From contig JAFWCU010000035.1 in NCBI GenBank assembly GCA_017534305.1, positions 79,790-143,789 of the forward strand: a stretch of 64,000 nt of DNA. The letters are read 5' to 3'. The notes under the pieces are model-generated. The model made no database searches, was not told where the DNA came from, and saw nothing but the letters and a program-made list of their open reading frames with translations. Positions 5,957 through 26,887 of this stretch are shown piece after piece. A program made the position numbers and the translations under genes. Source of the DNA: Clostridia bacterium. GTDB lineage: Bacteria > Bacillota > Clostridia > TANB77 > CAG-465. Each line of letters starts with the position of its first letter. Within the stretch, counting starts at the first letter, position 1.

Positions 5957-7429
5957 ATGGAAAATAGTGATAGATTTTACAGTGAATTTAAAGAAATTCT
6001 TTTAAAATGTTCTTATACTAGTACATATAAGTTTTCTTGGGCAAAGGCAATAATAGAATTATCAATAAAAGATAACAATACACATGAATACATCAATATA
6101 ACTTTTAATAGTATAGTTAGAATAATGTTTAAGTACTACTGGAATTTATATACAAAAGGTATTGTAGACAACACTTATATGGGCTTAAAAACTGAGATAG
6201 GCAATGCTATAGAAGAGTTGGCTAAAAAATACATTGGAAATTATGGAAATATAGAAAACTATGATACAGCTATAAAAAAAATAAATGGAGAAGATTATAA
6301 CAGATGTATTGAGAAAATGGAAGCAGCAGTATCAAAAGATGTTTGCGATAGATTTACTATATCAAAAGGAATACAACAAGATAATATATATGTTCATGAA
6401 AGTGGAAATAAGTATATAACTATGAAAAAGAGCCATATGAACATATTGAAAGAATCTTGTAATGAATTTTATAAGATAATCAATTATAGATGGGCAACAA
6501 CAGTTTTCAATATATCAAACGAAATTAGAAAAAAAGTTTTAGTAGAAGAAGAGTTTGAAGTAAATAGAAGTGTAGAAAATATTGAATTGTTTAATGCTGA
6601 TAACTATCATGATAAGAGTGAAATTGAACTAGAACATGAAAATGAAGAAAATATCATAAAATCAAGTAGAGATGGTATAAAAAAAGAAACTATATTACAA
6701 CTGATTGAAGAAAGAATACAAGATATAATAGTTGACAGCAAAACTATCTACGTATTAAAAGGATTCAATAGTTTTTATAATGATATAAATATAGAAGTTA
6801 AACATATAATGAATCTTAACATTGATGATTCAATAATTAATATATTCGATAATAATGTGCAAAAACTATTATTTCAAACTATAGATGTTTTAAAAGAAGA
6901 AAAACCATGTTTTTGTTTTATGGAAGAATTATTAACATTTAATAAAATTATGCCTATATCTTCGATTATTAAAAACTTAAAATACGAAGTAGAAATAATC
7001 GAAATAGGATGCTTTGAGTATTATTATCCAGGCTTTAAATATAAGGATAATAGTGAAAACGAGTTAATAACAGAAAGAATTGCTGATGACGAAAAAATTC
7101 AAAATATATATCGATATTTTGAAATAATAAAAAATAAAGTGGTGGTAGCATATAACGATATGGATATTATTAAAGAGAATGATATTCCAATCAACTACTT
7201 GTTTGACGGATTTGATGATGTAGAAAAAATGAAAAATAGGTATATTAATTCGAATAATACTGTATCTATTGATAAAACTATATCAAAAAAATCATTCATA
7301 GCTCTATTCGATGGAGCTTTATCAAATGAATTTAACAGTATACAAATTTCAAAAAATAACATTGACGATAGCAGTATGAAGTTTTTAAGCATACTTAATG
7401 AGATGGGAATTGACATACATGTAAAATAA
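5957..7429 (+). CDS. Hypothetical protein (490 aa), first gene of the accessory island
   Basis: RBS AAGGAGAG. It has its own promoter and terminator. No catalytic motif recognised. The N-terminal STYKFSWAKAIIELS segment resembles winged-helix-like modules seen at the N-termini of defence-island proteins, but that is a recollection only. Confidence 0.6.
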   Translation: MENSDRFYSEFKEILLKCSYTSTYKFSWAKAIIELSIKDNNTHEYINITFNSIVRIMFKYYWNLYTKGIVDNTYMGLKTEIGNAIEELAKKYIGNYGNIENYDTAIKKINGEDYNRCIEKMEAAVSKDVCDRFTISKGIQQDNIYVHESGNKYITMKKSHMNILKESCNEFYKIINYRWATTVFNISNEIRKKVLVEEEFEVNRSVENIELFNADNYHDKSEIELEHENEENIIKSSRDGIKKETILQLIEERIQDIIVDSKTIYVLKGFNSFYNDINIEVKHIMNLNIDDSIINIFDNNVQKLLFQTIDVLKEEKPCFCFMEELLTFNKIMPISSIIKNLKYEVEIIEIGCFEYYYPGFKYKDNSENELITERIADDEKIQNIYRYFEIIKNKVVVAYNDMDIIKENDIPINYLFDGFDDVEKMKNRYINSNNTVSIDKTISKKSFIALFDGALSNEFNSIQISKNNIDDSSMKFLSILNEMGIDIHVK

Positions 7430-7494: not shown

Positions 7495-7512
7495 TAAAAA
7501 AAGGTGGAAAAA

Positions 7513-10179
7513 ATGGGGATAGAAGAAAAAAATATAGAAATTTTGAAAAACGAAATATTTGATTCAAGAACAATTAGAAGAAAATCTTGGGATGAAATAA
7601 AAGAAAACAAAGATCTAATTTTGCAAATAATTAGGTTTAATAACAATATAGAGTTTAATGATGATGATTTCTATAAAGCAATAGAAGTATTAAAAAAAAT
7701 AGAGCAAAACACTGTGGATATTCGTTATCTTGATGATAATCAAATAAATAATCTTAAAGTTCCACAACAAAGCACATGTGCGTGGCAAATATTTAAAAAG
7801 AATTCATTAAAAAGTTATGGCTTTGAAACAATTAGAGATACAGAAGAAAGTGCATTAAAAATTTTAAATAGATTAAGAATAAATACAATTAATAAAGAAC
7901 CTGGAAAAGGACTAGTTATGGGATATGTTCAATCAGGAAAAACATTAAATATTGAAGCCTTAATAACCATGGCAGCAGATAACGGATTTAATGTTTTTGT
8001 AATGTTAACTGGAACCATAGAAAATTTAAGACAACAAAACTTAGACAGGCTAAAAAATGATATTGAATATAATGGAAAGTCAAGCGTATCATGGACTTTT
8101 GTTGATGATATTAAAAATGCAGAAAAGCACCACAAAATTTCTGGAATATTAAACAGTGAAGGAAGAATTGTGGTTACATTATTAAAGCAAAAAAATAATT
8201 TAACAAAACTAAACAAGTGGTTGACAGAATCTGTAGCAATAATGGAACAACAAAAAATGAAAGTATTAGTAATAGATGATGAGTCTGACCAAGCAAGTAT
8301 AAATACTAAAAAAGATACTAACAGAACTTCAATAAATCAATTAATTGTAGACTTGGTGAATTATAATAGATTTGGTTGCTTAAATTATATTTCATATACC
8401 GCTACACCATATGCAAATTTTTTAAATGAAAATTCTCCAGAGAGTTTATATCCAAAAGATTTTATTGTGTGTTTGCCTAAATCAAAACAATATATTGGCG
8501 CGAGTGAGATATTTGGTAAATATAGCGACATTGATAATAGCAGTGACGGATTAAATATTGTAAGGGATATAACAAAAGAAGATTTAGAATCCATAAAACA
8601 AATAGAGAAAGGAGAAAAACAGGAAATACCTGCAACGTTAAAAAGTGCTATTTGTTGGTTTATTTGTACTTTAGCTATTAGAAGATATAAAGCTGAAGTG
8701 GAAGTTGATAAAAAATTAAATAAAAGCCCGGTTAGTATGATGATTCATACTGATGCTAAAACGATAGTTCACAGAAATACGGGAAGATTCATTAAAGAAT
8801 GGATTAACTCAAATAAGCAGAATTTATTAAAATGGTGTGAAGAAGTATATAGAGAAGAATCATTAGGATTTACAAAAAATGATTTTCTAGAGGTTATGCC
8901 TAATTATGATGCAGATGGACTACATCATATCGAGGATTATCCTAATTTTGAAGATATAAAAAAATATGTAATTGAGATTTTAAATATAAAAGCATCACAC
9001 ATATACATAGATGATGATGATAGACTGAAATATCATAAAGGAATTCATGTTATAGAAGATAATAGCAATAATAGAAAAGGCGTAAATGACAATGGAGAAA
9101 TGATTAGAATTAAATATCCAGAAGAAAATGAAGTCGATTATGCAACAGGCTTTCTTATTATTGGAGGAAATACACTATCAAGAGGACTTACATTAAAAGG
9201 TCTTACAAGCTCATATTTTGCAAGAAAAACAAATCAAGTTGATTCATTAACGCAAATGGGAAGATGGTTTGGATATAGGATTGGTTATGAATTGTTACCG
9301 AGAATATGGCTTACTAGAGATTCCAAAGAAAAATTTACTGAAGCAGCATATATTGAAGAACAATTAAGAGATAATTTGGCTAGTTATGATTTAGGTACAA
9401 AACCATCAGAATATGCACCAAAAATAAAATCTTCATATTTAACAACATTTAAATTAACTGCTACTAATAAAATGCAAAATGCAGTTAAATATCAAACAAT
9501 TTATGAAAAGGTAGATAATCAAACAGTAATATTTGATGATGATATCGATATACAAAGAAACAACTTGATTAACACAATAAATTATATAAAGAACAATGAA
9601 AATAATTTAATACAAGAAAAAGATGGAAACTATGTTGAGAGAAATGTATCATATAGCGAACTATTTGATAATTTGTTAAGTAAAATCAAATTTTATGATA
9701 ATGCAAAACTATTTGGTGAAATTAAGTTCTTTATTAAATATTGTGAAGAAAAAGACAAACGAAATTGGGATGTAATAATTGAAAATTCAAAAGATAAATA
9801 TACACTTAATAATAAAAAAATTAAGGTTGGAAATATTGACATACAAACTGTAAATCGTTCTAGAAGACTAGATAATAGAAATGGTACAATATCAATTGGA
9901 GTATTATCAAACCCAAAAGATAAAACTAATGCTTATTTATATGAAACAGGAAAAGACGGAGATATATATAGTTTAAAAAGACCAAAATTATTCATATACT
10001 TCATAGATAAAGATTCAAAAGCTAATGGCTCAAAGAATAGAGCAGATATGAATTATGAAACCGATATAGTAGGTTTTAAAATCTATGTGCCTAACAAAGA
10101 TGAACAAGTAAATATGTTAAATAAAGAGAATAATAGATATTACATTTCTCAAATAATGAAAAAGGAGGAAAACTCTTAA
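7513..10179 (+). CDS. Z1-domain superfamily-II NTPase/helicase-like protein
   Basis: ORF track 7504..10179. I prefer the ATG at 7513 after AGGTGG. Motifs: GYVQSGKT (Walker A), VLVIDDESDQAS (DExD-like), YISYTATPYAN, GGNTLSRGLTLKGL. This arrangement is what I know as the Z1 domain family. Confidence 0.75.
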   Translation: MGIEEKNIEILKNEIFDSRTIRRKSWDEIKENKDLILQIIRFNNNIEFNDDDFYKAIEVLKKIEQNTVDIRYLDDNQINNLKVPQQSTCAWQIFKKNSLKSYGFETIRDTEESALKILNRLRINTINKEPGKGLVMGYVQSGKTLNIEALITMAADNGFNVFVMLTGTIENLRQQNLDRLKNDIEYNGKSSVSWTFVDDIKNAEKHHKISGILNSEGRIVVTLLKQKNNLTKLNKWLTESVAIMEQQKMKVLVIDDESDQASINTKKDTNRTSINQLIVDLVNYNRFGCLNYISYTATPYANFLNENSPESLYPKDFIVCLPKSKQYIGASEIFGKYSDIDNSSDGLNIVRDITKEDLESIKQIEKGEKQEIPATLKSAICWFICTLAIRRYKAEVEVDKKLNKSPVSMMIHTDAKTIVHRNTGRFIKEWINSNKQNLLKWCEEVYREESLGFTKNDFLEVMPNYDADGLHHIEDYPNFEDIKKYVIEILNIKASHIYIDDDDRLKYHKGIHVIEDNSNNRKGVNDNGEMIRIKYPEENEVDYATGFLIIGGNTLSRGLTLKGLTSSYFARKTNQVDSLTQMGRWFGYRIGYELLPRIWLTRDSKEKFTEAAYIEEQLRDNLASYDLGTKPSEYAPKIKSSYLTTFKLTATNKMQNAVKYQTIYEKVDNQTVIFDDDIDIQRNNLINTINYIKNNENNLIQEKDGNYVERNVSYSELFDNLLSKIKFYDNAKLFGEIKFFIKYCEEKDKRNWDVIIENSKDKYTLNNKKIKVGNIDIQTVNRSRRLDNRNGTISIGVLSNPKDKTNAYLYETGKDGDIYSLKRPKLFIYFIDKDSKANGSKNRADMNYETDIVGFKIYVPNKDEQVNMLNKENNRYYISQIMKKEENS

Positions 10180-10196: not shown

Positions 10197-12242
10197 ATGG
10201 TATTAGATCAACACATAAAACGTATAGATGTAATGGATGTTGGTGGAAAAATGTTAAAAAAGTCTATTCAAAATGACAGTACTCCAACATTAGATTTATT
10301 AGTAAGAGAAGTTGTGCAAAACTCATTAGATGCAAAAAAAGATAATGTAGATTGCGTTAAACTCGAATTTAAAAATGGGAATCTTGATAATAATAAATTA
10401 ATTGAATGCTTAGGAAATATAGGAAAGAAAATAGAAAGTAAGTACCAAACATTTAACAAGAGTTGCTATATGGCTTTTAGAGATAGCAATACAACAGGGC
10501 TAACTGGGCCAATGAACCTTAAAGATGTTGTCGATAATAAGTTTGGAAGATTAATAAATCTTGTCTTCAATATTGGCAAACCACAAACAGCTGAAGGTGC
10601 TGGAGGCTCATGGGGATATGGAAAAACTGTATATTATAGAGTAGGAATTGGTTTAGTGGTATATTATACGAGAATAGTAGAAAATGGTATTTATAAGTCA
10701 AGATTAGTTATTACATTTATTGAAGATGAAGAAAATACCATTATACCATCAGGAAACATTGATAATCAATCTTTAAAAAGTGGAATCATGTGGTTTGGAA
10801 AAAATGTAAATAATAGTTTTTATCCTGTGACAAATGAAAATGAAATAAAAGAGATTTTGAATATTTTTAATATTCCACTATATACAGGAAATGAAACAGG
10901 TACAACAGTAATAATACCATATATAGATGAAGAAAAGCTTTTAGATCAAACTTTTTCAAACGATGAAGATAACAAAAATTATTTTGTATGGAACAAAACT
11001 ATTGAGGAATATATAAAGTATTCAATACAAAAATGGTATGCACCTAGATTAATGAATAGGTACTATAAAGATAATCCTTATTTATATTTCATTATAAATG
11101 GATATCCATTTGATGAATACGACGATTTTCATCCATTTTTTAAAATGATACAAAATTTATATAACAGTTGCATAGGAATTGAAAATGATAATGTTATAGT
11201 AGAAAATATAAAAATAAGAGATAGCTCCGATATTGTTGGAAAAATAGCATATGGTAAATTTACTAAATATGATATGGATATAACGCAACAAGATGCAGAT
11301 CCTTTTACTGAAATAACTAATCTTAGAAAAAATCACGATGTAAATGAACCGATTATTGCTTTTTGCAGAAAGCCTGGAATGATATTAAAGTATGATATAA
11401 AAGAGAAATGGTCAAATAAGATTAAGTTTTTAGATGAAGACAAATATTTGGTAGGATTCTTTTTGGCAAACTCAAATGCTATTTTAAAAGATAAGCCTAA
11501 CGGTCAAGAAAGTTTGGAAGAGTATTTAAGAAGCAGTGAAAAAGCAGACCATATGGACTGGAATGATGAACAAAAATGCAAAATTGTATCAAAACTACAA
11601 AGTAAAGTTCAAACAATAATTAATGATTCTTTAAAAGAAGTTGTTGAAGAAGAACAAATCGAAATAAGTAGTCCACTAAATAAGAAACTAGCTAGATTAT
11701 TTCTTCCTCAAAAAGGTTTTGGAAGAAGACCATCTGGAATTAAAGCTCAAATCCAAGAAGAAAAGAGAGTTTCTCTTTCAAATAAAATTAATGCAACAAT
11801 TAATGATATAGATGGCTCATTTTACATTGATGAAGATGATAATAAAACAAAGTCATATACCGTTAATTTTGGAAATAAAGAAACTGATATGTCTTTTGAA
11901 TTACAGCTTGTTTCTGAAGATGGTACTATTTCTCCAAGTAAATGGTATAAAGATTTTGAAAGGAGATTATTCCCAATTAAAATTCTAAAAATAGATCTTC
12001 TAGAAAAGCATTGTAATAATGATACTGAATATTTAAATAATGTGAGATTACATGAAGAAAATAAAAAATATGAAGACAAAGAATATACATTTGAATTAGA
12101 AAAGGATGAATTTGATCAAATAATAGGATTTAGAATATTAAAAAAAGAAACAATTAAATATTTAAAATTTAGAATTACATATAGATATAATGACGAAAGT
12201 TTTATAGGTTCAATTTCTAAGAAGGGAAATGCAAATGAATAA
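10197..12242 (+). CDS. GHKL (HATPase_c_3, MORC/MutL-like) ATPase
   Basis: LVREVVQNSLDA (Bergerat N-box), RDSNTTGLTG (DxGxG-like) and GGSWGYGKT (G-rich lid). The start is uncertain; the ATG at 10249 after GGTGG is an alternative. Confidence 0.7.
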   Translation: MVLDQHIKRIDVMDVGGKMLKKSIQNDSTPTLDLLVREVVQNSLDAKKDNVDCVKLEFKNGNLDNNKLIECLGNIGKKIESKYQTFNKSCYMAFRDSNTTGLTGPMNLKDVVDNKFGRLINLVFNIGKPQTAEGAGGSWGYGKTVYYRVGIGLVVYYTRIVENGIYKSRLVITFIEDEENTIIPSGNIDNQSLKSGIMWFGKNVNNSFYPVTNENEIKEILNIFNIPLYTGNETGTTVIIPYIDEEKLLDQTFSNDEDNKNYFVWNKTIEEYIKYSIQKWYAPRLMNRYYKDNPYLYFIINGYPFDEYDDFHPFFKMIQNLYNSCIGIENDNVIVENIKIRDSSDIVGKIAYGKFTKYDMDITQQDADPFTEITNLRKNHDVNEPIIAFCRKPGMILKYDIKEKWSNKIKFLDEDKYLVGFFLANSNAILKDKPNGQESLEEYLRSSEKADHMDWNDEQKCKIVSKLQSKVQTIINDSLKEVVEEEQIEISSPLNKKLARLFLPQKGFGRRPSGIKAQIQEEKRVSLSNKINATINDIDGSFYIDEDDNKTKSYTVNFGNKETDMSFELQLVSEDGTISPSKWYKDFERRLFPIKILKIDLLEKHCNNDTEYLNNVRLHEENKKYEDKEYTFELEKDEFDQIIGFRILKKETIKYLKFRITYRYNDESFIGSISKKGNANE

Positions 12243-13146
12243 TATATTAGAAAACTATCCACTTTTGGATAATGATTTGATTGTAAAATCTAAAATTAAT
12301 ATAATACCAGATGTGTATTATACAATAGATGATAACGTGAAAAAACTAAAACTTGACCAGTACAATAATAATTTATTATTAGTTGTTGACGATGAAGAAA
12401 TATGGTCACCAAAGAACAATAATTTATTTATTTCATATAAAGTTGAGATAGATAATCCAAGAGAATTTTATAGTAAAGTCGCAGGAAAAAATTCAAAATT
12501 AGGAATAGTACTAACTTGGAGCTGTAAAAGTACCAAAACAGTAAAATCTACTTTAATAAAAACTTTTGATTATACTGAAGAAAAACTAAACTTTATAACT
12601 GGGTTAAAAATTGATAAGGGAGAAATAGCTAATAAAATTAACATATCATTTAAGTTAGTTATGATAGATAATAATGATTCAAAAAATTATGCAAAGATAG
12701 TTGGAGCCGAACTTGGAGAATTACAAAATGAAATAATTGAAGTAGAAGGAAATGGTTCTATTTTTCCAATGGTATTAATAAAAGATGAAAATGGACCACT
12801 ATGGGAAGCTATTTACAATTTTGATCCTGATGAGTTAAATGAAGAATTAAATTTAAATAAAGTTTGTTTAAGAATAAATGCTTTGCATAAAAACTATAAA
12901 AAAGAAGATTATACACTTGATGGAGAAAATATGACACCTATTTTTAAAGAAATATTATCTCAATTTTTTGTGTTTCTGTTCTATAGAGCTAACTCTATAG
13001 AAGAAATTAGAAGTGAAAAATATGATAATGGTACAATTGGTGCATTTATTCAAAATTTATTATATAGTTTCGATATAGATATGTTAGATGAAATTAACGA
13101 TTTATCAAAAAAAATTAGAAAAAAGATAGATAGTTTGGATGCATAA
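12235..13146 (+). CDS. Hypothetical protein (~303 aa) within the operon
   Basis: ORF track 12229..13146. The ATG at 12235 overlaps the upstream stop (ATGAATAA), indicating translational coupling. No motif recognised. Confidence 0.6.
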   Translation: MNNILENYPLLDNDLIVKSKINIIPDVYYTIDDNVKKLKLDQYNNNLLLVVDDEEIWSPKNNNLFISYKVEIDNPREFYSKVAGKNSKLGIVLTWSCKSTKTVKSTLIKTFDYTEEKLNFITGLKIDKGEIANKINISFKLVMIDNNDSKNYAKIVGAELGELQNEIIEVEGNGSIFPMVLIKDENGPLWEAIYNFDPDELNEELNLNKVCLRINALHKNYKKEDYTLDGENMTPIFKEILSQFFVFLFYRANSIEEIRSEKYDNGTIGAFIQNLLYSFDIDMLDEINDLSKKIRKKIDSLDA

Positions 13147-13158
13147 GAAGGAGAAAAT

Positions 13159-13839
13159 ATGAATTGGAAAGAATTGAGTAATAATGACGCTTCACTAGAG
13201 TTTGAAAAATTGTTAAATGGTACAAGAAATAATGAAACAAAATTAAACTCTAGTTATGAAGAAATGAGAAACGATTTGTTAAATCTATGGAAAGAAACCA
13301 ATAATGAAATACTAGAAAAAAAGTTACCAGGGGACTATTGTTATGATTATATATTTGCTTTAAAAATGTATAATTTACTAACAAACAAATATGGCATTAC
13401 AAAGTATGAAGCTGGAAATGACAATATTTGGATGTATATACATTTAATTGTTAGCCCGGAAATTCTTAGAGATAGAATAGGAATGGACAACCCTGATAGA
13501 TATTATAAACTAAGCAGAAGATTATATTTCAAAAATTTATGGTGGTATATTTATCTTTCATGGAGAATAGATGAAGATACTACTAGAAAGATAATTGAAA
13601 ACAATTCAACTGATACGATATTACAGCTATGTGAAAGAAGCGGAAAACTTGGTTATCGAAGAGAAGTATATAATGAAATTATGTATCAAAAATATTTGAA
13701 AAAAATAAAAGATGGAAGTCCATTTAGAAGTATTATGGTACTTAATACACTTAAAGTAAAAACTATAGATCCATATATATATGATGGCGGAGTAGAAAAA
13801 TATGTACAAGATTTGATAAAAGAGGCTTTGGAGGGATAA
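13159..13839 (+). CDS. Hypothetical protein (226 aa) within the operon
   Basis: RBS AAGGAG. Trp/Tyr-rich segments (NIWMYIHLIVSPEILRDRIG, RRLYFKNLWWYIYLSWR). No catalytic motif recognised. Confidence 0.6.
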   Translation: MNWKELSNNDASLEFEKLLNGTRNNETKLNSSYEEMRNDLLNLWKETNNEILEKKLPGDYCYDYIFALKMYNLLTNKYGITKYEAGNDNIWMYIHLIVSPEILRDRIGMDNPDRYYKLSRRLYFKNLWWYIYLSWRIDEDTTRKIIENNSTDTILQLCERSGKLGYRREVYNEIMYQKYLKKIKDGSPFRSIMVLNTLKVKTIDPYIYDGGVEKYVQDLIKEALEG

Positions 13840-13841
13840 AT

Positions 13842-14732
13842 ATGAAAAAAAACATTTTTAGAGATTGCTATAATTACATGAAGAATGGACAAACTATTAT
13901 GCAAATAGAAAATACGAATAATTTATATGCTGTAAAAGAAGATGGATACTTTGGAGTCGCAGTTGATATTCCTATGGATGCTTTTGATTATGAAGAAAAC
14001 TTTGAAAATATTTTGTGTGTTACGAGATATAAAAATTTTAATGACAGTAACCATAAACTTTTTCAAATAATAACTGATAGGTTAGACCATTTAGATTTTT
14101 TCTTTGATATATGCGAAAATTTCGTATCTTTCTGCACAAAGCAAGAGAATATTTCAATATTAGTATTAAAAGCTTATTGGATTGATGAGTTAAAAGCGTT
14201 TGTTGGAAATAGGCTTGTTGAAGAAAGTTCATATTCTTTTTTAGCTGAATTAAAAGTTTTGGAATATCTATTAACAATAGGGAAAAATGCAATATTAACA
14301 AAAGATGGTACATATGATATTGAATGTGATAAAGAATATTTTGAGGTGAAGTCTACCATCAGTAGATATAACTCAAACATTCATGTAAATAGCCAATATC
14401 AATTAGTATCTAATAGCGATGAATCTTTAAAAATAGTATTTGTAAGATTGGAAGAATTAGAAAATGGAATTTCAATTATCGAAACAATTGAAAAATTAAG
14501 AATTTTGAATTATAATGTAGAAACAATACTTCAAAGGGCAAAAAGAATTGATAGCGATGCTCTAAACAAAAAATATTGTATACATGAAGCGAGAATTTAT
14601 AATGTAGATGATAATTTTCCAAAAATAACTCCAGAAATGTTTCCAAATGAAACATTTCCAAAAGGAATTATTAAAGTTGAATATACAATTGATTTGGATT
14701 CATTAACATATGAGAAAATTGATTTAAAATAG
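13842..14732 (+). CDS. PD-(D/E)XK motif protein (putative nuclease)
   Basis: RBS GGAGGG. Starts 2 nt after the upstream stop. YDIECDKEYFEVKS gives D...E-x-K spacing. Size and context match the PD-(D/E)XK motif proteins that accompany Z1/GHKL genes. Confidence 0.6.
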   Translation: MKKNIFRDCYNYMKNGQTIMQIENTNNLYAVKEDGYFGVAVDIPMDAFDYEENFENILCVTRYKNFNDSNHKLFQIITDRLDHLDFFFDICENFVSFCTKQENISILVLKAYWIDELKAFVGNRLVEESSYSFLAELKVLEYLLTIGKNAILTKDGTYDIECDKEYFEVKSTISRYNSNIHVNSQYQLVSNSDESLKIVFVRLEELENGISIIETIEKLRILNYNVETILQRAKRIDSDALNKKYCIHEARIYNVDDNFPKITPEMFPNETFPKGIIKVEYTIDLDSLTYEKIDLK

Positions 14733-14745
14733 AGGGGGATATAAA

Positions 14746-15855
14746 GTGATAAGGCTAGCAACAGTATTTAGCGGTATAGGAGCAATAGAACAAGCATTAA
14801 AACAACTTGGTATTGATTACAAAGTTGTTTTTGCGTGTGACAATGGAGAAAGATATCTTGATATTGATCAAGAAGAAATAGAAGAGAAAATTAAAGGTTT
14901 AACACCTGAAGAAAAACAAAAATATATTTCTAAAATATATAATGAAACAGGAAAAGTTAACAATGTAAAAAAATCATATTTTGCTAATTATGATATATCA
15001 GAAGATAGATGGTATGAAGATATAAGATTTTTAGATGGTAATAAATATAAAGGAAAAGTAGATTTAATCGTTGGTGGAAGCCCATGTCAAAGCTTTTCTA
15101 CATATGGTAAAAAAAGAGGATTAGAGGATACTAGAGGAACACTATTTTATGACTATGCAAGATTAATAAAAGAAATACAGCCTAAAGTCTTTATTTTTGA
15201 AAATGTAAAAGGTTTATTAAGTCATGACAAAGGAAGAACTTGGTCTGTAATAAAAGATGTATTTGAAAGTTTAAATTATAAAATTAAATATCAAGTTATC
15301 AATGCATGTGATTATGGGCTTCCTCAGCTAAGAAAAAGAGTTTTCGTAGTTGGTATAAATAAAAATATCGAAAGCGAAGAGTTTTCTTTTCCTGATAAAA
15401 TTGAACTTGAACATACAGCCAAAGATTACTTAGATGATGAAGTGGATGACAAATATTATTTGCCATTCAAAGGTTTTAGATATGTTACTACGCCAGAAAG
15501 AAACGAAGGTAGAGCTAGAGTAAATAGAGATATTATTGGATGTGAAACTGCAAATCAACAATTTAACTGGATAGGAGATTTTAGAGTAGAAAAGCCTAAG
15601 CCACAACATTATAATGATCCAAGAATATATATAGGAGAATATGAGGGACAAGAAGCTGTAGCGAGAAAAATGACACCACAAGAATGTTTAAAATTAATGG
15701 GATTTCAAGATTTTAACGTTGTAGTAGATGATAAAACAGCATACAGACAAGCCGGAAATTCAATTGCAGTACCAGTATTAAAAGAAATCACGAAATCAAT
15801 TTTAAATACAGTAAATTTTGATGGAGATGATAGTAATGGAGAAATACAAAAGTAA
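14746..15855 (+). CDS. dcm: DNA (cytosine-5)-methyltransferase
   Basis: GTG start after AGGGGG. Motifs in canonical order: I FSGIGA, IV GGSPCQSFS, VI FENVKG, VIII QLRKRVF, X GNSIAVPV. Confidence 0.9.
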   Translation: MIRLATVFSGIGAIEQALKQLGIDYKVVFACDNGERYLDIDQEEIEEKIKGLTPEEKQKYISKIYNETGKVNNVKKSYFANYDISEDRWYEDIRFLDGNKYKGKVDLIVGGSPCQSFSTYGKKRGLEDTRGTLFYDYARLIKEIQPKVFIFENVKGLLSHDKGRTWSVIKDVFESLNYKIKYQVINACDYGLPQLRKRVFVVGINKNIESEEFSFPDKIELEHTAKDYLDDEVDDKYYLPFKGFRYVTTPERNEGRARVNRDIIGCETANQQFNWIGDFRVEKPKPQHYNDPRIYIGEYEGQEAVARKMTPQECLKLMGFQDFNVVVDDKTAYRQAGNSIAVPVLKEITKSILNTVNFDGDDSNGEIQK

Positions 15856-16810
15856 AATATGGTATTTAGATAGAGGGAAAAATTATTTTACTGATGAAGG
15901 AAAAGATTTTTATAATACTATTATTAATGTGGTAAATTCAAATTATTTTACAAGTAAAATTGACTCATCAGATTTAATTGAAAAATTTCCAAACAAATAC
16001 AAAAAATCTAAAAATCCTAATGCATTATTGACATCGGCAAGAAATATAGGAATTCTTAACAAAAAAAATGTACTAGGAGAAAGTGTTAAATATTATCTAA
16101 ATAATAGACTAACATATAAAGAATTGATTTTTGAAAATCTAACAAAAATTAATTATGATAAAGACTGTTCATATAATGTTAAGCCTTTTTTTGTTATATG
16201 TAAAACATTATATGAACTGTACAAAATTTCAAAAGAAGAAGCATATTTAACTAGAAGTGATTGTAAAAATTATCTGCTAGATATAACTGATTACAATATG
16301 ATAGACTATAAATTTGCATGTAAAATTATTTCTAATAGAGATTTTGAAACATTAGAAAAAGGATATTCATTAGACATTTGGTTTAATGCTTTAAGCGAAT
16401 TTGATATGTTTAATTCTAGTAATAATAACACTATAATAAAAATTAACGAAGGGGAGATTTTATTTTTTAAAGAAGTTTCTTCAAAAGTAAATAAGGTAAA
16501 AACATATAAAAGCAACAATATCTTTAATAGTACAATTGATGAATATTGTTCTAAAGAAACTGGAATTAATTATATCATTCCAAATATTGAATTTAATTCT
16601 GGACTTGAAATTGATAGTAATACAGGAAAAGAAATATATGATTATTTATTTGGAATATCAAACAATATAAGTCAAAAATATTTTAATAATAATTATTTTG
16701 GTGTATATAAGCCTTATAGAAAAATAGCAAATATTGCAATTAGAAAAATAGAATATAATAATATGGAAATAGCTAGATTATTATATAAGATTAATAATGA
16801 GGTGGTTTAA
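15836..16810 (+). CDS. Hypothetical protein (~324 aa) overlapping the 3' end of dcm
   Basis: ORF track 15818..16810. I prefer the ATG at 15836 (GGAG 9 nt upstream), which gives a 20-nt overlap with dcm. No motif recognised. Confidence 0.55.
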   Translation: MEKYKSKIWYLDRGKNYFTDEGKDFYNTIINVVNSNYFTSKIDSSDLIEKFPNKYKKSKNPNALLTSARNIGILNKKNVLGESVKYYLNNRLTYKELIFENLTKINYDKDCSYNVKPFFVICKTLYELYKISKEEAYLTRSDCKNYLLDITDYNMIDYKFACKIISNRDFETLEKGYSLDIWFNALSEFDMFNSSNNNTIIKINEGEILFFKEVSSKVNKVKTYKSNNIFNSTIDEYCSKETGINYIIPNIEFNSGLEIDSNTGKEIYDYLFGISNNISQKYFNNNYFGVYKPYRKIANIAIRKIEYNNMEIARLLYKINNEVV

Positions 16811-17509
16811 ATGTATGGAGTACCTACAGTAAGATTACTTATTAAACCTACTTTTGATGCCCTTAAAAGATTAGGTGGCACAGGAGATAGTGAAAGTATA
16901 CAAAAGGAAGTAATAGAAATAATGGGATTAGATTATGATGCTATAAATGCACCACATAAGGACCATAGTTGTACAGAACTTGAGTATAATTTAAAATGGG
17001 CAAGAACGAACTTAAAAAACGCTAAAATAATTGAAAATTTAGAAAAAGGAATATGGAGAATTTTACCTGAATATAGAAATCATTTTATGACAGCTAATGA
17101 AGCTAATGATATAGCAAAATATAGAGAAAATAAGAATAACTATGTGAAAACCAATAAATCATCTATAATTAATCAAGAATACATTGAAAATAATTATAAT
17201 AACTTAACGCAACAAATTAGACAATTTAACGAAGAAAGAGATTGGGACCAATTCCATTCTCCAGAAAATTTAGCTAAATCTATTTCTATAGAAGCAGGAG
17301 AATTATTAGAATGCTTTCAATGGAATAATGATTATAACAAAGAAGAAGTCTGTGAAGAATTAGCAGATGTATTTACATACTGTATTATGATGGCGGACAA
17401 GCTTGGTGTTAATCCAGAAGAAATCATTTTAAATAAACTAGAGAAAACTAAGAAAAAATATCCAGTAGAAAAATCTAAAGGGGTAAGTACAAAATATGAT
17501 AAATTATAA
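16811..17509 (+). CDS. Fusion of an Mrr_N-like winged helix to a DCTPP1-like MazG nucleotide pyrophosphohydrolase
   Basis: The ATG directly abuts the upstream TAA. The N-terminus (LIKPTFDALKRLGGTGDSESIQKEVIEIMG...LKWARTNLKNAKIIEN..GIWRI) resembles Mrr_N. The C-terminus (ERDWDQFHSPENLAKSISIEAGELLECFQW...EELADVFTYCIMMADKLGV...LEKTKKKYP) aligns by eye with the dCTP pyrophosphatase 1 / MazG-like core. Confidence 0.7.
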   Translation: MYGVPTVRLLIKPTFDALKRLGGTGDSESIQKEVIEIMGLDYDAINAPHKDHSCTELEYNLKWARTNLKNAKIIENLEKGIWRILPEYRNHFMTANEANDIAKYRENKNNYVKTNKSSIINQEYIENNYNNLTQQIRQFNEERDWDQFHSPENLAKSISIEAGELLECFQWNNDYNKEEVCEELADVFTYCIMMADKLGVNPEEIILNKLEKTKKKYPVEKSKGVSTKYDKL

Positions 17510-17879
17510 TACAGAAGAAAAAAGTATACTATACATACTTCATAATATGGAACTTAATAAGTTCTTTACGAATGTTTTTGATATATATGAAATTAGAGGT
17601 GTTGTTGGCGATAAAAACGGAGTTGTTTTCGAGGTAAGAACAAAAGAAAAGGGCCACAATGTGCCACATATTCATGCTAGATATGGCGAATATAATATTT
17701 CTATTGCGATAGATACAGGTGAAGTTTTAAAAGGAAATCTGCCAGGTAAAAAGCAAAAAATCGCACAAAAATGGGTTTTAGACAATAAAGATATGTTAAT
17801 AACAAAATGGAATAATATTGTGGTAAAAGATAATTGGCCATTTAGTAATACAAAATTAAAAGATAAAGCATATAACTAG
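17496..17879 (+). CDS. DUF4160 domain protein
   Basis: VPHIHARYGEYNISIAIDTGEVLKGNLPGKKQKIAQKWV matches the DUF4160 pattern (PHIH..Y.....I.I..G....G.LP). The start is uncertain (17496 overlapping the upstream gene, or 17547). Confidence 0.55.
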   Translation: MINYNTEEKSILYILHNMELNKFFTNVFDIYEIRGVVGDKNGVVFEVRTKEKGHNVPHIHARYGEYNISIAIDTGEVLKGNLPGKKQKIAQKWVLDNKDMLITKWNNIVVKDNWPFSNTKLKDKAYN

Positions 17880-17900
17880 AGATTATATGCTTTATTTTTT
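17865..17900 (+). terminator. Intrinsic terminator ending the operon
   Basis: AAAGCATATAA-ctagaga-TTATATGCTTT hairpin spanning the stop codon, then a T-run. Confidence 0.65.
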
Positions 17901-17962
17901 GTCTTATCTTGTAACCCAGATCTCTCTGTGATAAAATATAACCATATTTTGGAGGTCGAAAT

Positions 17963-19831
17963 ATGATAGTTTACGAGGCTACAAAAGAGTTATTTGTATC
18001 AGATGTAATACAAGATAAAATTAGAGATAGAATAGATAAAAAGTTTTATGAAAAAATGGGTTATCACACAAGTGAATCAGAAAGAAAAGCTTGGGAAAAC
18101 TCTATGCAATATATGTTAAAAGTATTAGTAGATAATAATATACCTGCAGCATGTGGTATAGCTATAGAATTTAGGATACCTAATACTTCTAAAAGAGTAG
18201 ATTTTATCATTTCAGGTAAAGATGAAAGTGGTAAAAATACAGCTATAATAGTAGAACTAAAACAATGGACTGAAGCAAAAATAGTAAGTGGTAAAGATGC
18301 TATAGTTGAAACATTTACAGGACATGCAGTAAGAGAAGTAGCACATCCATCATATCAAGCATGGTCTTATGCTACAACAATAGAAGATTATAACGAAAAT
18401 GTTCAACAACAATGTATTACTCTACATCCTTGCGCATACTTACACAATTACCAAAGAGTAACACCACCAACTATATTATCTGATGTATATAAAGAATATT
18501 TAGATAAAGCACCTGCATTTGTAAAAGGTGATGTAGAAGATTTAAGAAAATTCATTACAAAGCATATTAAGTATGGAGATAATAAAGAAACACTATACTT
18601 AATAGAAAATGGAAAAATAAGACCATCTAAAGCGTTACAAGACGCATTATCTGGAATGTTAAAAGGTAATAGAGAATTTGTAATGATAGATGATCAAAAA
18701 GTAGTATATGAAACTGCATTTAGTATGGCTAAAAAATCTTATCAAGATGGAAAGAAAAGAGTGCTAATTGTAGAAGGTGGACCAGGTACAGGTAAATCTG
18801 TAGTAGCAGTAAACTTACTTGTAAATCTAACAAATGAAAATATGCTATGCCAGTACGTAACTAAAAACTCTGCACCAAGAAATATATATGCTGCAAAACT
18901 TAGTGGTGAAATGAAGAAAACTAGAATAAACAATTTATTCAAAGGTTCAGGTGCATTTGTGGATGAACCGGCTAACCAATTTGATGCTTTAATAGTAGAT
19001 GAAGCACATAGATTAAATAAAAAATCTGGTATGTTCCAAAACTTAGGAGAAAATCAAATTAAAGAAATTATTAATGCATCTAAATTTTCTGTTTTCTTTA
19101 TAGATGAATCTCAAAGAGTAACTCTAAAAGATAATGGTAGTATAGAAGAAATAGAAAAATTCATTAAAGAATTTAATGCAGAAGAAGTTAAACTTGAACT
19201 ACAATCTCAATTTAGATGTAATGGCTCAGACGGATATATAGCATGGCTAGATGATGTATTACAAATTAGAGAAACAGCAAATGATATCTTTGACTTAGAT
19301 TATGATATTAGAATTTGTGATACACCAAATGAAGTAAGAGATATAATTTTTGAAAAAAATAAAGAATGTAATAAAGCAAGACTGCTTGCAGGATATTGTT
19401 GGAACTGGATAAAGGAAGGTAAAAACAAAAGTGATGTTCATGATATAACAATACCAGAGTATAATTTTGCTATGAGTTGGAACTTAGGAAATAGTGAAAC
19501 ATGGGCTATAGATGAAGACTCTGTAAATGAAATAGGATGTATACATACATCTCAAGGACTTGAGTTTGATTATGTGGGTGTAATAATAGGTGATGACTTA
19601 AAATATAGAGATGGAAAAATAATTACAGATTACACTAAAAGAGCAAGTACAGATCAATCACTTAAAGGAATAAATAAACTAGCAAAAGAAAATGCAGAAG
19701 AAGCTAAAAGAGTAGCAGATGAAATAATAAAAAACACATATAGAACATTACTATCTAGAGGACAAAAAGGATGCTATATCTATTGTATAGATAGTGAGTT
19801 GAGAGATTATTTAAAAGAAAGATTAAAATAG
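17963..19831 (+). CDS. DUF2075-family (Schlafen-group-3-like) nuclease-NTPase
   Basis: N-terminal RVDFIISG...AIIVELKQW (D...E-x-K), then VLIVEGGPGTGKSVVA (Walker A) and ALIVDEAHRL (Walker B). 622 aa. This layout is typical of DUF2075/COG3410. Confidence 0.7.
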   Translation: MIVYEATKELFVSDVIQDKIRDRIDKKFYEKMGYHTSESERKAWENSMQYMLKVLVDNNIPAACGIAIEFRIPNTSKRVDFIISGKDESGKNTAIIVELKQWTEAKIVSGKDAIVETFTGHAVREVAHPSYQAWSYATTIEDYNENVQQQCITLHPCAYLHNYQRVTPPTILSDVYKEYLDKAPAFVKGDVEDLRKFITKHIKYGDNKETLYLIENGKIRPSKALQDALSGMLKGNREFVMIDDQKVVYETAFSMAKKSYQDGKKRVLIVEGGPGTGKSVVAVNLLVNLTNENMLCQYVTKNSAPRNIYAAKLSGEMKKTRINNLFKGSGAFVDEPANQFDALIVDEAHRLNKKSGMFQNLGENQIKEIINASKFSVFFIDESQRVTLKDNGSIEEIEKFIKEFNAEEVKLELQSQFRCNGSDGYIAWLDDVLQIRETANDIFDLDYDIRICDTPNEVRDIIFEKNKECNKARLLAGYCWNWIKEGKNKSDVHDITIPEYNFAMSWNLGNSETWAIDEDSVNEIGCIHTSQGLEFDYVGVIIGDDLKYRDGKIITDYTKRASTDQSLKGINKLAKENAEEAKRVADEIIKNTYRTLLSRGQKGCYIYCIDSELRDYLKERLK

Positions 19832-19988
19832 GATAAAAAGCTACCAAATAAATTTGATAGCTTTATGTTACAAAAGTGAGTTGAAAAATGTCTAATTAAT
19901 AGATGTACTTTTTAAAAGGTAAAAAATAGAAAAACTATATTATTTTCAAATATTATAGTTATATAATTGGTAAAAAAGGGGAGTGCCA

Positions 19989-21296
19989 ATGAAAAAACTA
20001 AAAGAATTTACAGTAATACTATTAGAAAAAGAATATACAGCTAAATTTGACCAAGAAAATAGTGAATTAATAATAGATGATGAAAAGAAATTACGCAATA
20101 TAGCTAGAACAGACATAATTAAAATAAGAGATATGAATAATTGCTTTGTTAATAGTAAAAGTGAACTCTATTTTTGGTATGTCGAAAAATGTATACATGT
20201 AAATAGTGACTATGTTCTGTTTAAGGTAAAGTATTTTGTAAGTGATCCATTAAATAGAGGAAAAGCATTAAAAAGAAAATATAATAAGATAGTTTTAGCC
20301 GGTTCAAAAACAGTAAATAGATTACTACACCCTGCAGACTATTTTTATAATAATCTAGAAGAATCTAACTGTAATATTCTATATAATAAAAAAGTAATGA
20401 AATCATTTACAGTTAAATACAAAAAGAAAGAATTGCATTTTGAAATATATATTGGTAAATTAATAAATAATGGTAATTTATCAAGATTTGATGACTATGT
20501 AAAAATAGAAATCGAATCAAAAAAGAATATGAATATAAACGAAGCATTAATGTTAATTAAAAAGATTAAACAAGCTTTTGTTGTTTTAAGCGGTAACGAA
20601 AGTATTATTTTTAAATATATAGAATTAATTAATGAGACTTCTTATATTTACATTAATGAAAATGGGAGTGAAGATTTTTACAAATTAATGTCAGTAAATT
20701 TGTATCAAAATGAAATATTAGAGAAGATAATTAAGGGAACCATAGAGAATAAAAAATTAGAATATAGATTTTTTGAAAAGAACAACATAGAAATAACAAC
20801 ACTATATATTTGTAGAGCCTTTGAAAAAATCGCAGAGAAAAGAAGAATTAAGCCTAATAGATCAGATGCCGAAAATAGAATAATTACCGAATTACTAAAA
20901 AAATTACATACATTTGAGTCAAATGGATTTATAGATGGAGTAGAAAATACACTAAACACCTATAACAATAAGTTTTATTCACATTTAAAATGGGCTTTTG
21001 CTAAATACTATTATTATTTTGATGAAAGTAATATGTGTTGGCCTGATTTCTTTATAAAAAAAGTAGGTAAAAAAACAGAATGTGGTATTGAATTTGATGA
21101 TAGTGCTTATAGATTAAATAAACTGAGAAATAACATAGCACATGATGATATGACAAATATTATATTAGCCGAGGATAAAAACATAATTAATGGATTAGGA
21201 TATATTACATATATAATGTTATTAGAGGAGTTTGGATTAAGTAAAGATGAAATAATGTTGTTTATGACCTGGGGGATGAATTTGTTTATAGAATAA
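19989..21296 (+). CDS. Hypothetical protein with a C-terminal HEPN-like Rx4H motif (Abi/ApeA-like candidate)
   Basis: ORF track 19983..21296; ATG at 19989 after GGGGAG. The C-terminal YRLNKLRNNIAHDD gives R-NNIA-H. The N-terminal ~350 aa are unassignable. Confidence 0.5.
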   Translation: MKKLKEFTVILLEKEYTAKFDQENSELIIDDEKKLRNIARTDIIKIRDMNNCFVNSKSELYFWYVEKCIHVNSDYVLFKVKYFVSDPLNRGKALKRKYNKIVLAGSKTVNRLLHPADYFYNNLEESNCNILYNKKVMKSFTVKYKKKELHFEIYIGKLINNGNLSRFDDYVKIEIESKKNMNINEALMLIKKIKQAFVVLSGNESIIFKYIELINETSYIYINENGSEDFYKLMSVNLYQNEILEKIIKGTIENKKLEYRFFEKNNIEITTLYICRAFEKIAEKRRIKPNRSDAENRIITELLKKLHTFESNGFIDGVENTLNTYNNKFYSHLKWAFAKYYYYFDESNMCWPDFFIKKVGKKTECGIEFDDSAYRLNKLRNNIAHDDMTNIILAEDKNIINGLGYITYIMLLEEFGLSKDEIMLFMTWGMNLFIE

Positions 21297-25822: not shown

Positions 25823-25918
25823 GTATTTCTAAAACGGAAATTTAATATATAATAAATATGCGAAAGGTTTCTTTTTAAGAAATATTGTGGTATAATATAT
25901 ACTAAGGAAGTGATTAGT

Positions 25919-26887
25919 GTGGGATTAAGTGCAAATCTAAGAATACGTAGAGAAGAAATTAAAATGACTCAAAAAGAATTAGCTCAAAAAATAGGTGTAG
26001 AACCAGCAACAATTTCTAAATATGAATCTGGTATGAATGAACCAAATATTAAAAATCTTAAATCTATAGCCGAAGCTCTAGATACTTCAATAGACGAACT
26101 AGTAAAAGAGGAAGAAGATGTAGTAGACTTATCTAAAGTTAATCTATTAGAAATACTAAGAGAGCAAAAGAGAAACAAACTAGAAGGAAATATTTATCAC
26201 TATACTCAAGTAAAATTTGCATATAATACAAACCATATTGAGGGTAGTACATTAACAGAAGAGCAAACTAGATATATATATGAAACCAAAAGTCTATTAA
26301 CTGATCAAAATACATTATCATTTACTAAACTAGATGATATTTATGAAACAGTTAATCATTTTAGACTAGTAGATTATATGATAGATAATGCGGATAAAAA
26401 ACTAACAGAATCAATGATAAAAGAATTTCACAAAATATTAAAAGCCGGAACAAGTGATGAAACAGAAAAAGGATATAATATTGGAGAATACAAAAGCATA
26501 GAAAATTCTGTTGGCAATCTTAAAACAGCTAAACCAAATCAAGTAGCCAAAGAAATAAAAGTATTATTAGAAAAATACAATTCAAAAGAAAAAATAAAAG
26601 TTGAAGATATAATAGATTTTCATGCAAAATTTGAAGCTATACATCCATTTCAAGATGGAAATGGTAGAATAGGAAGAATGATAATGTTCAAAGAATGTCT
26701 AAAAAATAATATAGTACCTTTTATTATTTTAGATAAAGATAAACAATTCTATTATAGAGGACTATATCAATATCAAGAGAGCAAAGAAAAAGGTTATCTA
26801 ATAGATACATGCTTAAACGCACAAGATCAGTATAAAGCTTCTATGGAATATTTCTTAAAAGGTTACACAAAATTAAATAATAAATAA
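25919..26887 (+). CDS. XRE-family HTH domain fused to a Fic domain
   Basis: MTQKELAQKIGVEPATISKYESG (HTH) and HPFQDGNGRIGR (Fic motif HxFx[D/E]GNGRxxR). ORF track 25910; I prefer the GTG at 25919 after AAGGAAG. Confidence 0.8.
   Translation: MGLSANLRIRREEIKMTQKELAQKIGVEPATISKYESGMNEPNIKNLKSIAEALDTSIDELVKEEEDVVDLSKVNLLEILREQKRNKLEGNIYHYTQVKFAYNTNHIEGSTLTEEQTRYIYETKSLLTDQNTLSFTKLDDIYETVNHFRLVDYMIDNADKKLTESMIKEFHKILKAGTSDETEKGYNIGEYKSIENSVGNLKTAKPNQVAKEIKVLLEKYNSKEKIKVEDIIDFHAKFEAIHPFQDGNGRIGRMIMFKECLKNNIVPFIILDKDKQFYYRGLYQYQESKEKGYLIDTCLNAQDQYKASMEYFLKGYTKLNNK

Follow-up and report, generated by a model that had tools for sequence, protein, structure and literature searches.

A rare in-frame fusion of an Mrr_N winged helix to a predicted DCTPP1-type MazG-like pyrophosphatase in a clostridial defence island

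We analyzed an open reading frame (ORF) in a stretch of 64,000 nucleotides from a Clostridia bacterium (GenBank assembly GCA_017534305.1, contig JAFWCU010000035.1, positions 79,790 to 143,789 of the forward strand), hereafter the window. The predicted product joins an Mrr_N DNA-binding winged helix to a complete DCTPP1-type MazG-like pyrophosphatase. The window was compared with other contigs, whose relatives are labelled as loci (L) and proteins (P). In window coordinates, the fusion comprises the following elements:

16811..17509, plus strand: Mrr_N::MazG-like fusion ORF, 232 amino acids (aa), ATG start at 16811, including the stop codon (17507-17509)
16800..16805, plus strand: AGGTGG, ribosome-binding site of the fusion as read from the sequence, 5 nt 5' of the ATG
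16820..17086, plus strand: Mrr_N winged helix, aa ~4-92, placed by Pfam, the AlphaFold (AF2) model, the winged-helix fold matches and the ratio of nonsynonymous to synonymous substitution rates (dN/dS)
17087..17194, plus strand: linker, aa ~93-128, predicted as a long helix and then a low-confidence stretch
17195..17506, plus strand: complete DCTPP1-type MazG-like pyrophosphatase, aa ~129-232, placed by Pfam, structure matches and fold search

The fusion junction sits within the linker. According to the initial annotation, the start codon abuts the upstream stop and the gene lies directly downstream of a methyltransferase. The abutment is real, the TAA at 16808-16810 being immediately followed by the ATG at 16811, but this stop belongs to a 330-aa ORF (p330, 15818/15839-16810) that intervenes between the methyltransferase gene and the fusion. 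A sequencing or assembly artefact was rejected, since the ORF is present at 93% identity on seven independent contigs with an identical junction.

The C-terminal half matched the Pfam MazG-like family PF12643 over aa 157-232 (E 7e-24, 84.3 bits for a cut-off of 27). Its sequence matches among solved structures were the AF1178 pyrophosphatase (4qgp, 7.5e-19) and mouse and human DCTPP1 (6sqw, 2a3q, 7mu5 and 2oie, 1.5e-15 to 1e-10), and the alignment to the solved DCTPP1 structures shows the blocks that the initial annotation had given for this enzyme. The AF2 model of this half is an all-alpha four-helix fold, with a predicted local distance difference test (pLDDT) of 88-97 over aa 131-220. A fold search, proposed along with the initial annotation, was run with Foldseek on both halves. 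For the C-terminal half it returned the dCTPase fold, with 6sqw, 4qgp and 7mu5 as best matches (template modelling scores of 0.70-0.78, normalised to the target); the top match was the mouse dCTPase bound to 5-Me-dCMP. Enzymes of the DCTPP1 type are homotetramers with active sites shared between subunits, and they prefer dCTP and 5-modified dCTP. Using the published residue roles of DCTPP1 (metal ligands and cytosine pocket; PMC13291643), we observed that E161, E164, E183 and D186 align with the metal ligands E63, E66, E95 and D98 of the mouse enzyme, so that the metal-binding ExxE and ExxD on which the initial annotation relied are present. In addition, W145/W171 align with the Trp47/Trp73 base sandwich, and F139, F148, H149, Y190 and Y217 with Phe41, Phe50, His51, Tyr102 and Tyr129. 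All these residues are invariant among 45 subfamily members, at least 90% of which also retain E142 and D144. Thr189 aligns with Ile101, and Ile136 with His38, one of the two cytosine "selectivity filter" histidines, in a column that is variable across the subfamily. Judged from sequence and model, the protein has every computable feature of the DCTPP1-type MazG-like family except His38. Because the metal ligands and most pocket residues are intact, the enzyme half should be active, and it is predicted to be a catalytically competent deoxynucleoside triphosphate (dNTP) pyrophosphatase.

The N-terminal ~90 aa had been likened to Mrr_N, and this held: the profile PF14338 Mrr_N matched above threshold over aa 10-84 (E 2.8e-9, 37.4 bits for a cut-off of 29.5), and an exhaustive HMMER search found 984 relatives of this half at E<=1e-3, the 149 closest of which all carry Mrr_N. 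The domain was modelled alone on its own alignment, the full-length model from a mixed alignment having a poor N-terminus. The resulting AF2 model is a confident winged helix (pLDDT ~96 over aa 1-100; topology H-E-H-H-H-E-E) with elements H7-20, E24-26, H27-38 and H56-70 and a wing at E74-78/E81-84. Foldseek with this half returned exclusively winged-helix DNA binders, with weak values (E >=0.03) because no Mrr_N structure has been solved. A word-index search with the N-terminal 129 aa missed even the 99%-identical P0001, which we treated as a sensitivity limit. The PD-(D/E)XK nuclease domain Mrr_cat is absent from the fusion according to Pfam. Both domain assignments of the initial annotation are borne out by Pfam, structures, fold search and relatives.

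We then compared the gene orders around the two parts. The contigs that carry P0002 have the same order as the window: Z1, 681 aa, 303 aa, DUF6339, DUF4420, the C5-cytosine DNA methyltransferase (Dcm), p330, fusion, helicase. At L050, Dcm and p330 are followed by a complete Mrr enzyme (Mrr_N + Mrr_cat, 287 aa), two minus-strand genes, a stand-alone 108-aa MazG gene and the helicase. Residues 4-126 of the fusion align to the L050 Mrr and residues 131-232 to the L050 stand-alone MazG; the N-terminal ~92 aa are 44% identical to this Mrr, which occupies the same post-p330 position. The closest unfused relative is L098, where a stand-alone MazG is 98% identical to the C-half in protein and 93% in DNA, and where the helicase is 92% identical in DNA to that of the window. 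The L098 pair sits among a PLD-helicase, an SMC-like ATPase and a reverse transcriptase, and the locus shares nothing else with the window. The DNA homology between the two begins at window position 17198, which is the start codon of the L098 stand-alone MazG gene, as seen at the junction:

L098: AGAAGGTGTTTTAT-ATG-AAC-AAC-TTA-ACA
Window: GAA-AAT-AAT-TAT-AAT-AAC-TTA-ACG

Since the homology starts exactly at the stand-alone start codon, the fusion is a rearrangement chimera (Mrr_N::MazG), in which the winged helix and linker of an Mrr are joined in frame to an entire MazG-like ORF. A discrete two-gene module of 2.3 kb has its left boundary at this very join. Either a deletion of ~2 kb or the insertion of this module into mrr could have produced the chimera. 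DNA alignment to L050, which is too diverged and AT-rich, did not place the left breakpoint within the Mrr linker. L001, the 93%-identical relative, and the window have the identical junction, which indicates a single event. Two genes past the helicase, L001 carries Cas9-Cas1-Cas2 (14252-18917), where in the window a 437-aa ORF is followed by an MFS transporter.

The initial annotation had called for a survey of this architecture, and the fusion turned out to be limited to two near-identical proteins. Among 888 proteins matching the full sequence, Mrr_N and MazG-like occur together in P0001 (99%) and P0002 (93%) only; the other MazG-type matches are stand-alone, ~105-170 aa long and at most 87% identical to the C-half. 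A MazG domain was found in none of the 149 closest Mrr_N relatives, and the modules carried by the closest relatives are Mrr_cat, NA-iREase1, GmrSD_N, TIR, HEPN or AAA. A survey of 185,579 species genomes gave 584 relatives, the best 80 loci of which are those counted below; the fusion is in none of these 80, all of which match the C-half only. Apparent Mrr_N remnants at L013 and L023 (matches back to query residues 69 and 88) were discarded, these ORFs being ordinary stand-alone genes. The fusion was not found in 241 million metagenome records by a scan that included N-terminal-specific patterns. A phage origin was also rejected: matches were limited to 15 of 50,697 phage records, with unannotated fragments from faeces as the closest. 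The fusion is a rare, recent and lineage-specific chimera present in two near-identical lineages. Elsewhere in the MazG subfamily, small N-terminal add-ons were observed, HTH_3 in P0030 and DpnD/PcfM in P0114. A populous MazG branch (P0064, P0069, P0101 and similar, 169 aa) begins with a conserved extension of ~60 aa that matches nothing in Pfam, and the same extension is a separate, frame-shifted ORF at L013 (1386-1649).

Selection was estimated from Nei-Gojobori counts in one pairwise comparison, window versus L001. The winged-helix core had a dN/dS of 0.05, with 12 synonymous and 3 nonsynonymous changes (binomial P ~8e-7 against neutrality), and the MazG half a dN/dS of 0.04, with 18 and 4. 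The linker was the least constrained part (dN/dS 0.23; 7 synonymous, 10 nonsynonymous), and the neighbouring genes ranged from 0.03 to 0.09. Purifying selection has thus acted on both halves since the window and L001 diverged. These values bear on the proposal that the winged helix is a transcriptional autoregulator of the operon or module, leaving the enzyme unchanged, or else a tolerated passenger with no function. The HTH_3 and DpnD/PcfM add-ons, among other DNA-binding or different small extensions, as well as the great rarity and accidental origin of the fusion, would suit such a proposal. However, the constraint on the winged-helix core argues against a passenger, and Mrr_N is not known as an operator-binding domain; we consider this proposal improbable, the least credible of those weighed here.

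Downstream of the fusion lies the gene that recurs with the enzyme throughout its subfamily:

17963..19831, plus strand: SLFN-g3/DUF2075 helicase with an N-terminal D...ExK nuclease-like region, of Nhi-like architecture

In the window the helicase starts 454 nt 3' of the fusion, with a DUF4160 insertion between them; the gap is ~105 nt in L001 and L098. A helicase is present downstream on the same strand in 66 of the 80 MazG-like loci, and its projected start falls within 300 nt of the MazG stop in 54, mostly from -60 to +50 nt. For close stand-alone homologues, an SLFN-g3/DUF2075 helicase was the next gene in every context examined. The window helicase matched the DUF2075/SLFN-g3 domain with an E-value of 2.5e-105, as well as the PADLOC models Nhi, AbiO and PDC-S41; its aa 1-266 had no Pfam match and no relative in the PDB. 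The 80 loci come from Clostridia, Bacilli, Saccharibacteria, Actinomycetes, Muribaculaceae and Methanobrevibacter, with identities of 55-84%, a spread that points to horizontal transfer. The pair is also present in archaeal methanogens (L070 and L083, Methanobrevibacter) and in Saccharibacteria of the Candidate Phyla Radiation (L013, L014, L035, L039), 60-80% identical to the Clostridial copies, which points to recent transfer between domains within gut and rumen communities.

The genes flanking the MazG-like loci are varied and defence-rich, including Type IV enzymes, Cas9, Old/Gabija-like ATPases, PbeA, methyltransferases and PADLOC candidates, together with some housekeeping genes. A NUDIX gene accompanies 10 of the 80 loci, a DUF3427 enzyme 9 and an Mrr 4; the NUDIX protein that recurs there resembles MutT/NudG, with scores below the model cut-offs. 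A protein of 220 aa, for which Pfam and NCBIfam gave no match, stands at +1/+2 after the MazG-like gene at L063 (9445-10107) and six other loci, some of them without the helicase; it may be the source of seven PADLOC PDC-S07 matches. Overall, the conserved genomic partner of the MazG subfamily is the helicase and not Dcm. Within the library searched, we found no paper on DUF2075 with MazG or on MazG with Schlafen, and a domain-centric discovery paper names neither MazG nor PF09848. The widespread MazG-like and Nhi-like helicase pairing is apparently undescribed.

Upstream of the fusion, the window carries a seven-gene cassette:

7504-10179, plus strand: Z1/MzaC-like gene, cassette gene 1
10197-12242, plus strand: 681-aa gene, cassette gene 2
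12229-13146, plus strand: 305-aa gene, cassette gene 3
13159-13839, plus strand: DUF6339 gene, cassette gene 4
13842-14732, plus strand: DUF4420/MzaD-like PD-(D/E)XK gene, cassette gene 5
14746..15855, plus strand: Dcm, cassette gene 6
15818..16810, plus strand, likely start ATG 15839: p330, 323-330 aa, cassette gene 7 (last)

This cassette (Z1/MzaC-like, ~690 aa, ~305 aa, DUF6339, DUF4420/MzaD-like, Dcm, p330) resembles the MZA system, far below NCBIfam cut-offs. Its last gene, p330, has 26 homologues, always in this last position, and gave no match in Pfam, NCBIfam, PADLOC, PHROGs or a PDB sequence search; some homologues have an added topoisomerase-type zinc ribbon. In L091-L097 the cassette occurs with no MazG. 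It is followed by housekeeping genes in L091-93, by unrelated genes in L097, and in L094-96 and L050 by a gene for a complete Mrr enzyme, which begins before p330 has ended, its start overlapping the stop. In L091-L093 (positions 1-577), an SLFN-g3 helicase gene is directly upstream of Z1, not 3' of p330. Among the MazG loci, a Z1 gene is present in 2 of 80, and Dcm lies within 3 kb in 3 and within 10 kb in 12.

Expression signals were examined on both sides of the fusion. Upstream, p330 is predicted to be translationally coupled to the fusion, which seems to be read with the Dcm-p330 operon. Downstream, the interval before the helicase contains the following elements:

17496..17879, plus strand: DUF4160/DhiT-like gene, a ~370-nt insertion exactly at the fusion stop codon
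17862..17900, plus strand: terminator-like 14-bp hairpin and U-run (-12.5 kcal/mol, z = -3.5)
17909..17937, plus strand: promoter-like site ahead of the helicase, TTGTAA, 17 nt, TG-n-TAAAAT (extended -10), followed by a GGAGG ribosome-binding site

The DUF4160/DhiT-like gene, of a type II toxin family, overlaps the fusion by 14 nt. L001 and L098, which are collinear in other respects, lack it, and we saw no DUF2442-type antitoxin gene beside it. The terminator scanner passed over the hairpin (17862-17896, fewer than 3 G-C pairs), which folding supports. The hairpin with its U-run, the promoter-like site and the GGAGG are common to the window and L001, and L098 matches window 17857-19911 at ~92% DNA identity across the interval, helicase included.

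This arrangement could suggest that the fusion is an accessory of the 5-methylcytosine (m5C) methylase cassette, hydrolysing released 5-methyl-dCTP so that it is not re-incorporated at random, as a bacterial counterpart of the mammalian DCTPP1 role; the initial annotation had likewise tied the enzyme to an m5C methylase operon. Transcription and translational coupling with Dcm-p330 speak in its favour, the ribosome-binding site lying inside the 3' end of p330 and the terminator-like hairpin coming only past the fusion. Moreover, two lineages have kept the arrangement under purifying selection, the enzyme is closest in fold and pocket to the dCTPase solved with 5-Me-dCMP, and MutT/NudG-like NUDIX genes recur beside the subfamily. 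Nevertheless, the cassette is complete without the fusion in L091-L097, and Dcm within 3 kb or Z1 are seen in a handful of subfamily loci, to be compared with the 66 of 80 that have the helicase. The linkage comes from one lineage-specific rearrangement, and a functional tie to the methylase operon is not supported: the Dcm cassette does not regularly include the fusion, whose role as a methylase accessory appears unlikely to us.

The wider setting agrees with the defence context given in the initial annotation. The locus belongs to a defence island of ~5.9-21.3 kb, located between TrkA/TrkH and an MFS transporter and lower in G+C than its flanks, and the defence genes noted above beside the MazG-like loci fit this setting. 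Two ORFs at the island edges, 19983-21296 (437 aa) and 5957-7429 (490 aa), have no Pfam match, the former having no PHROGs match either. A few kb past the island, at 25910-26887, lies a gene for an HTH_3 and Fic/DOC protein; Fic proteins are also found beside the MazG-helicase pair in L023 and L040.

We propose the following scheme. The native form would be a stand-alone MazG-like enzyme of ~105-130 aa, encoded by the first gene of a mobile two-gene module with a DUF2075/SLFN-g3 nuclease-helicase, a module that is common in defence islands across several phyla. In this lineage a rearrangement placed the complete enzyme, in frame, after the Mrr_N and linker encoded by a Type IV mrr gene that had followed Z1...Dcm-p330, and the enzyme thereby gained a DNA-reader domain, the transcription of the cassette and translational coupling. 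The tetramer would hydrolyse dCTP-type nucleotides, probably 5-modified, to deoxynucleoside monophosphate and pyrophosphate. As the nucleotide-pool arm of the helicase module, it may clear phage-specific or recycled modified dCTPs, or lower dCTP; recycled 5-methyl-dCTP from degraded methylated DNA would matter in hosts with Type IV enzymes too. These are the three roles suggested in the initial annotation, and each of them is compatible with the observations. The four captured winged helices might concentrate the tetramer on DNA, possibly methylated. We regard this scheme, a DCTPP1-type enzyme of the helicase module that was fused to Mrr_N by rearrangement and is thereby tethered to DNA, as the probable one, with some reserve.

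The same reader-and-enzyme layout could instead describe an abortive-infection effector, a pyrophosphatase that is silent by default and is switched on when the winged helix or the helicase detects phage or damaged DNA, then draining dCTP or all dNTPs. Depletion of dNTPs is an established defence strategy (dCTP deaminase, dGTPase, PUA-Cal-HAD), a preprint predicts a MazG-like replacement of the calcineurin effector in PUA-HAD systems, and the closest Mrr_N relatives are fused to the effectors Mrr_cat, TIR, HEPN and GmrSD. By contrast, the stand-alone form consists of little more than a catalytic domain of ~105 aa and shows no evident sensor or regulatory region, which makes triggered depletion less likely than a constitutive activity of the housecleaning type, the habit of DCTPP1-type enzymes. 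There is also no HAD or second phosphatase partner and no PADLOC match, and we judge such an effector quite unlikely.

Several observations weigh against the tethered helicase-module enzyme that we favour. The helicase is lacking in 14 of the 80 MazG-like loci. Its putative N-terminal nuclease was proposed from a D...ELK motif that was picked out by eye and recurs in L013 and L023, and from a weak PADLOC NERD+UvrD match. In this clade the fusion and the helicase may be transcribed separately, co-expression not being evident because a terminator-like hairpin and a separate promoter-like site intervene. On the enzyme side, the activity of the whole subfamily is a prediction, and with His38 replaced by Ile136 a cytosine preference is plausible but not assured. 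The "modified cytosine" theme drawn from the NUDIX and Type IV neighbours is only suggestive, as the base rates of these genes in defence islands are uncontrolled. Purifying selection was seen in two lineages only. Finally, PADLOC gave no family for the fusion, and none of its curated dNTP-depletion models (dCTP deaminase, dGTPase, PUA-Cal-HAD) matched.

A bolder version of the favoured scheme would make the MazG-like enzyme and the DUF2075 nuclease-helicase an undescribed two-gene anti-phage system, with the enzyme acting against the phage supply of modified or ordinary dCTP and the helicase-nuclease against phage DNA, the fusion then showing that DNA tethering is advantageous; this we put forward tentatively, as a possibility that is rather doubtful at present. 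If the enzyme does act on dCTP-type nucleotides within a helicase-nuclease module, a pyrophosphatase route would stand beside the deaminase, dGTPase and calcineurin/HAD defences, and Nhi-like helicases would gain a so far overlooked partner. The enzyme gene has at least 584 relatives in species genomes, spread over Clostridia, Bacilli, Saccharibacteria, Actinomycetes, Bacteroidota and methanogens. The fusion itself offers a dated, codon-resolved case of defence islands making reader-effector proteins from neighbouring systems, in which the captured reader has been kept by selection. The fused and unfused enzymes, 98% identical, both exist in nature and provide a ready-made comparison.

With respect to known systems, the fusion shares with DCTPP1/RS21-C6 and AF1178 (4qgp) the PF12643 family, the four-helix all-alpha fold, the ExxE...ExxD motifs, the Trp-Trp sandwich and the equivalents of His51 and Tyr102/Tyr129. 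It differs by the substitutions His38->Ile136 and Ile101->Thr189, by the lack of eukaryotic tails, by its DNA-binding domain and by the location of its gene in a bacterial defence island beside a nuclease-helicase. Compared with the Mrr Type IV enzymes (Mrr_N + Mrr_cat), it has a genuine Mrr_N winged helix, but a pyrophosphatase in place of Mrr_cat, and so it cannot be a restriction endonuclease.

An N-terminal nuclease followed by DUF2075 has been described as an "Nhi-like" anti-phage architecture (Millman 2022; for Nhi, Bari 2022). The partner helicase resembles it in its DUF2075/SLFN-g3 domain, its N-terminal D...ExK region and its PADLOC Nhi match; whereas Nhi is described as a single-gene system, a MazG-like gene precedes the helicase here in ~80% of loci. 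In the McaZI group (DUF3427-DUF3883), DUF2075 NTPases stand beside DUF3427 modification-dependent enzymes (Lutz 2019, PMC6765204). L005 and L007 show this neighbourhood, in the order NUDIX, DUF3427+NOV_C, MazG-like and DUF2075, but that paper is silent on the MazG-like gene between, and the window has an Mrr-derived reader rather than DUF3427.

The initial annotation knew of no defence component coupling a reader to such a pyrophosphatase. This claim has to be softened, since a PUA modified-base reader with a MazG-like effector has been predicted in rare PUA-MazG-HAD variants (preprint, bioRxiv 10.64898/2026.01.15.699771) and the concept is not without precedent; what stands is that the Mrr_N fusion itself is rare. 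PUA-Cal-HAD and PUA-MazG-HAD likewise couple a reader-family domain to an effector that cleaves nucleotide triphosphates. However, the PUA pocket binds a mononucleotide, whereas the fusion has an Mrr_N winged helix, a predicted DNA binder, and no HAD partner; here the coupling arose by recent accident and is not an established architecture. The integron iMazG, the Bacillus YpjD/BcMazG and the phage MazG-like proteins (cyanophage S-2L) are also small mobile all-alpha NTP pyrophosphatases of the same fold (Foldseek ranks 21-28), but they are much weaker matches (E 0.02-0.2) and belong to different subfamilies. Set against these systems, the fusion is a rare accident kept by selection, and the more general finding is the pairing of the MazG-like gene with an Nhi-like helicase.

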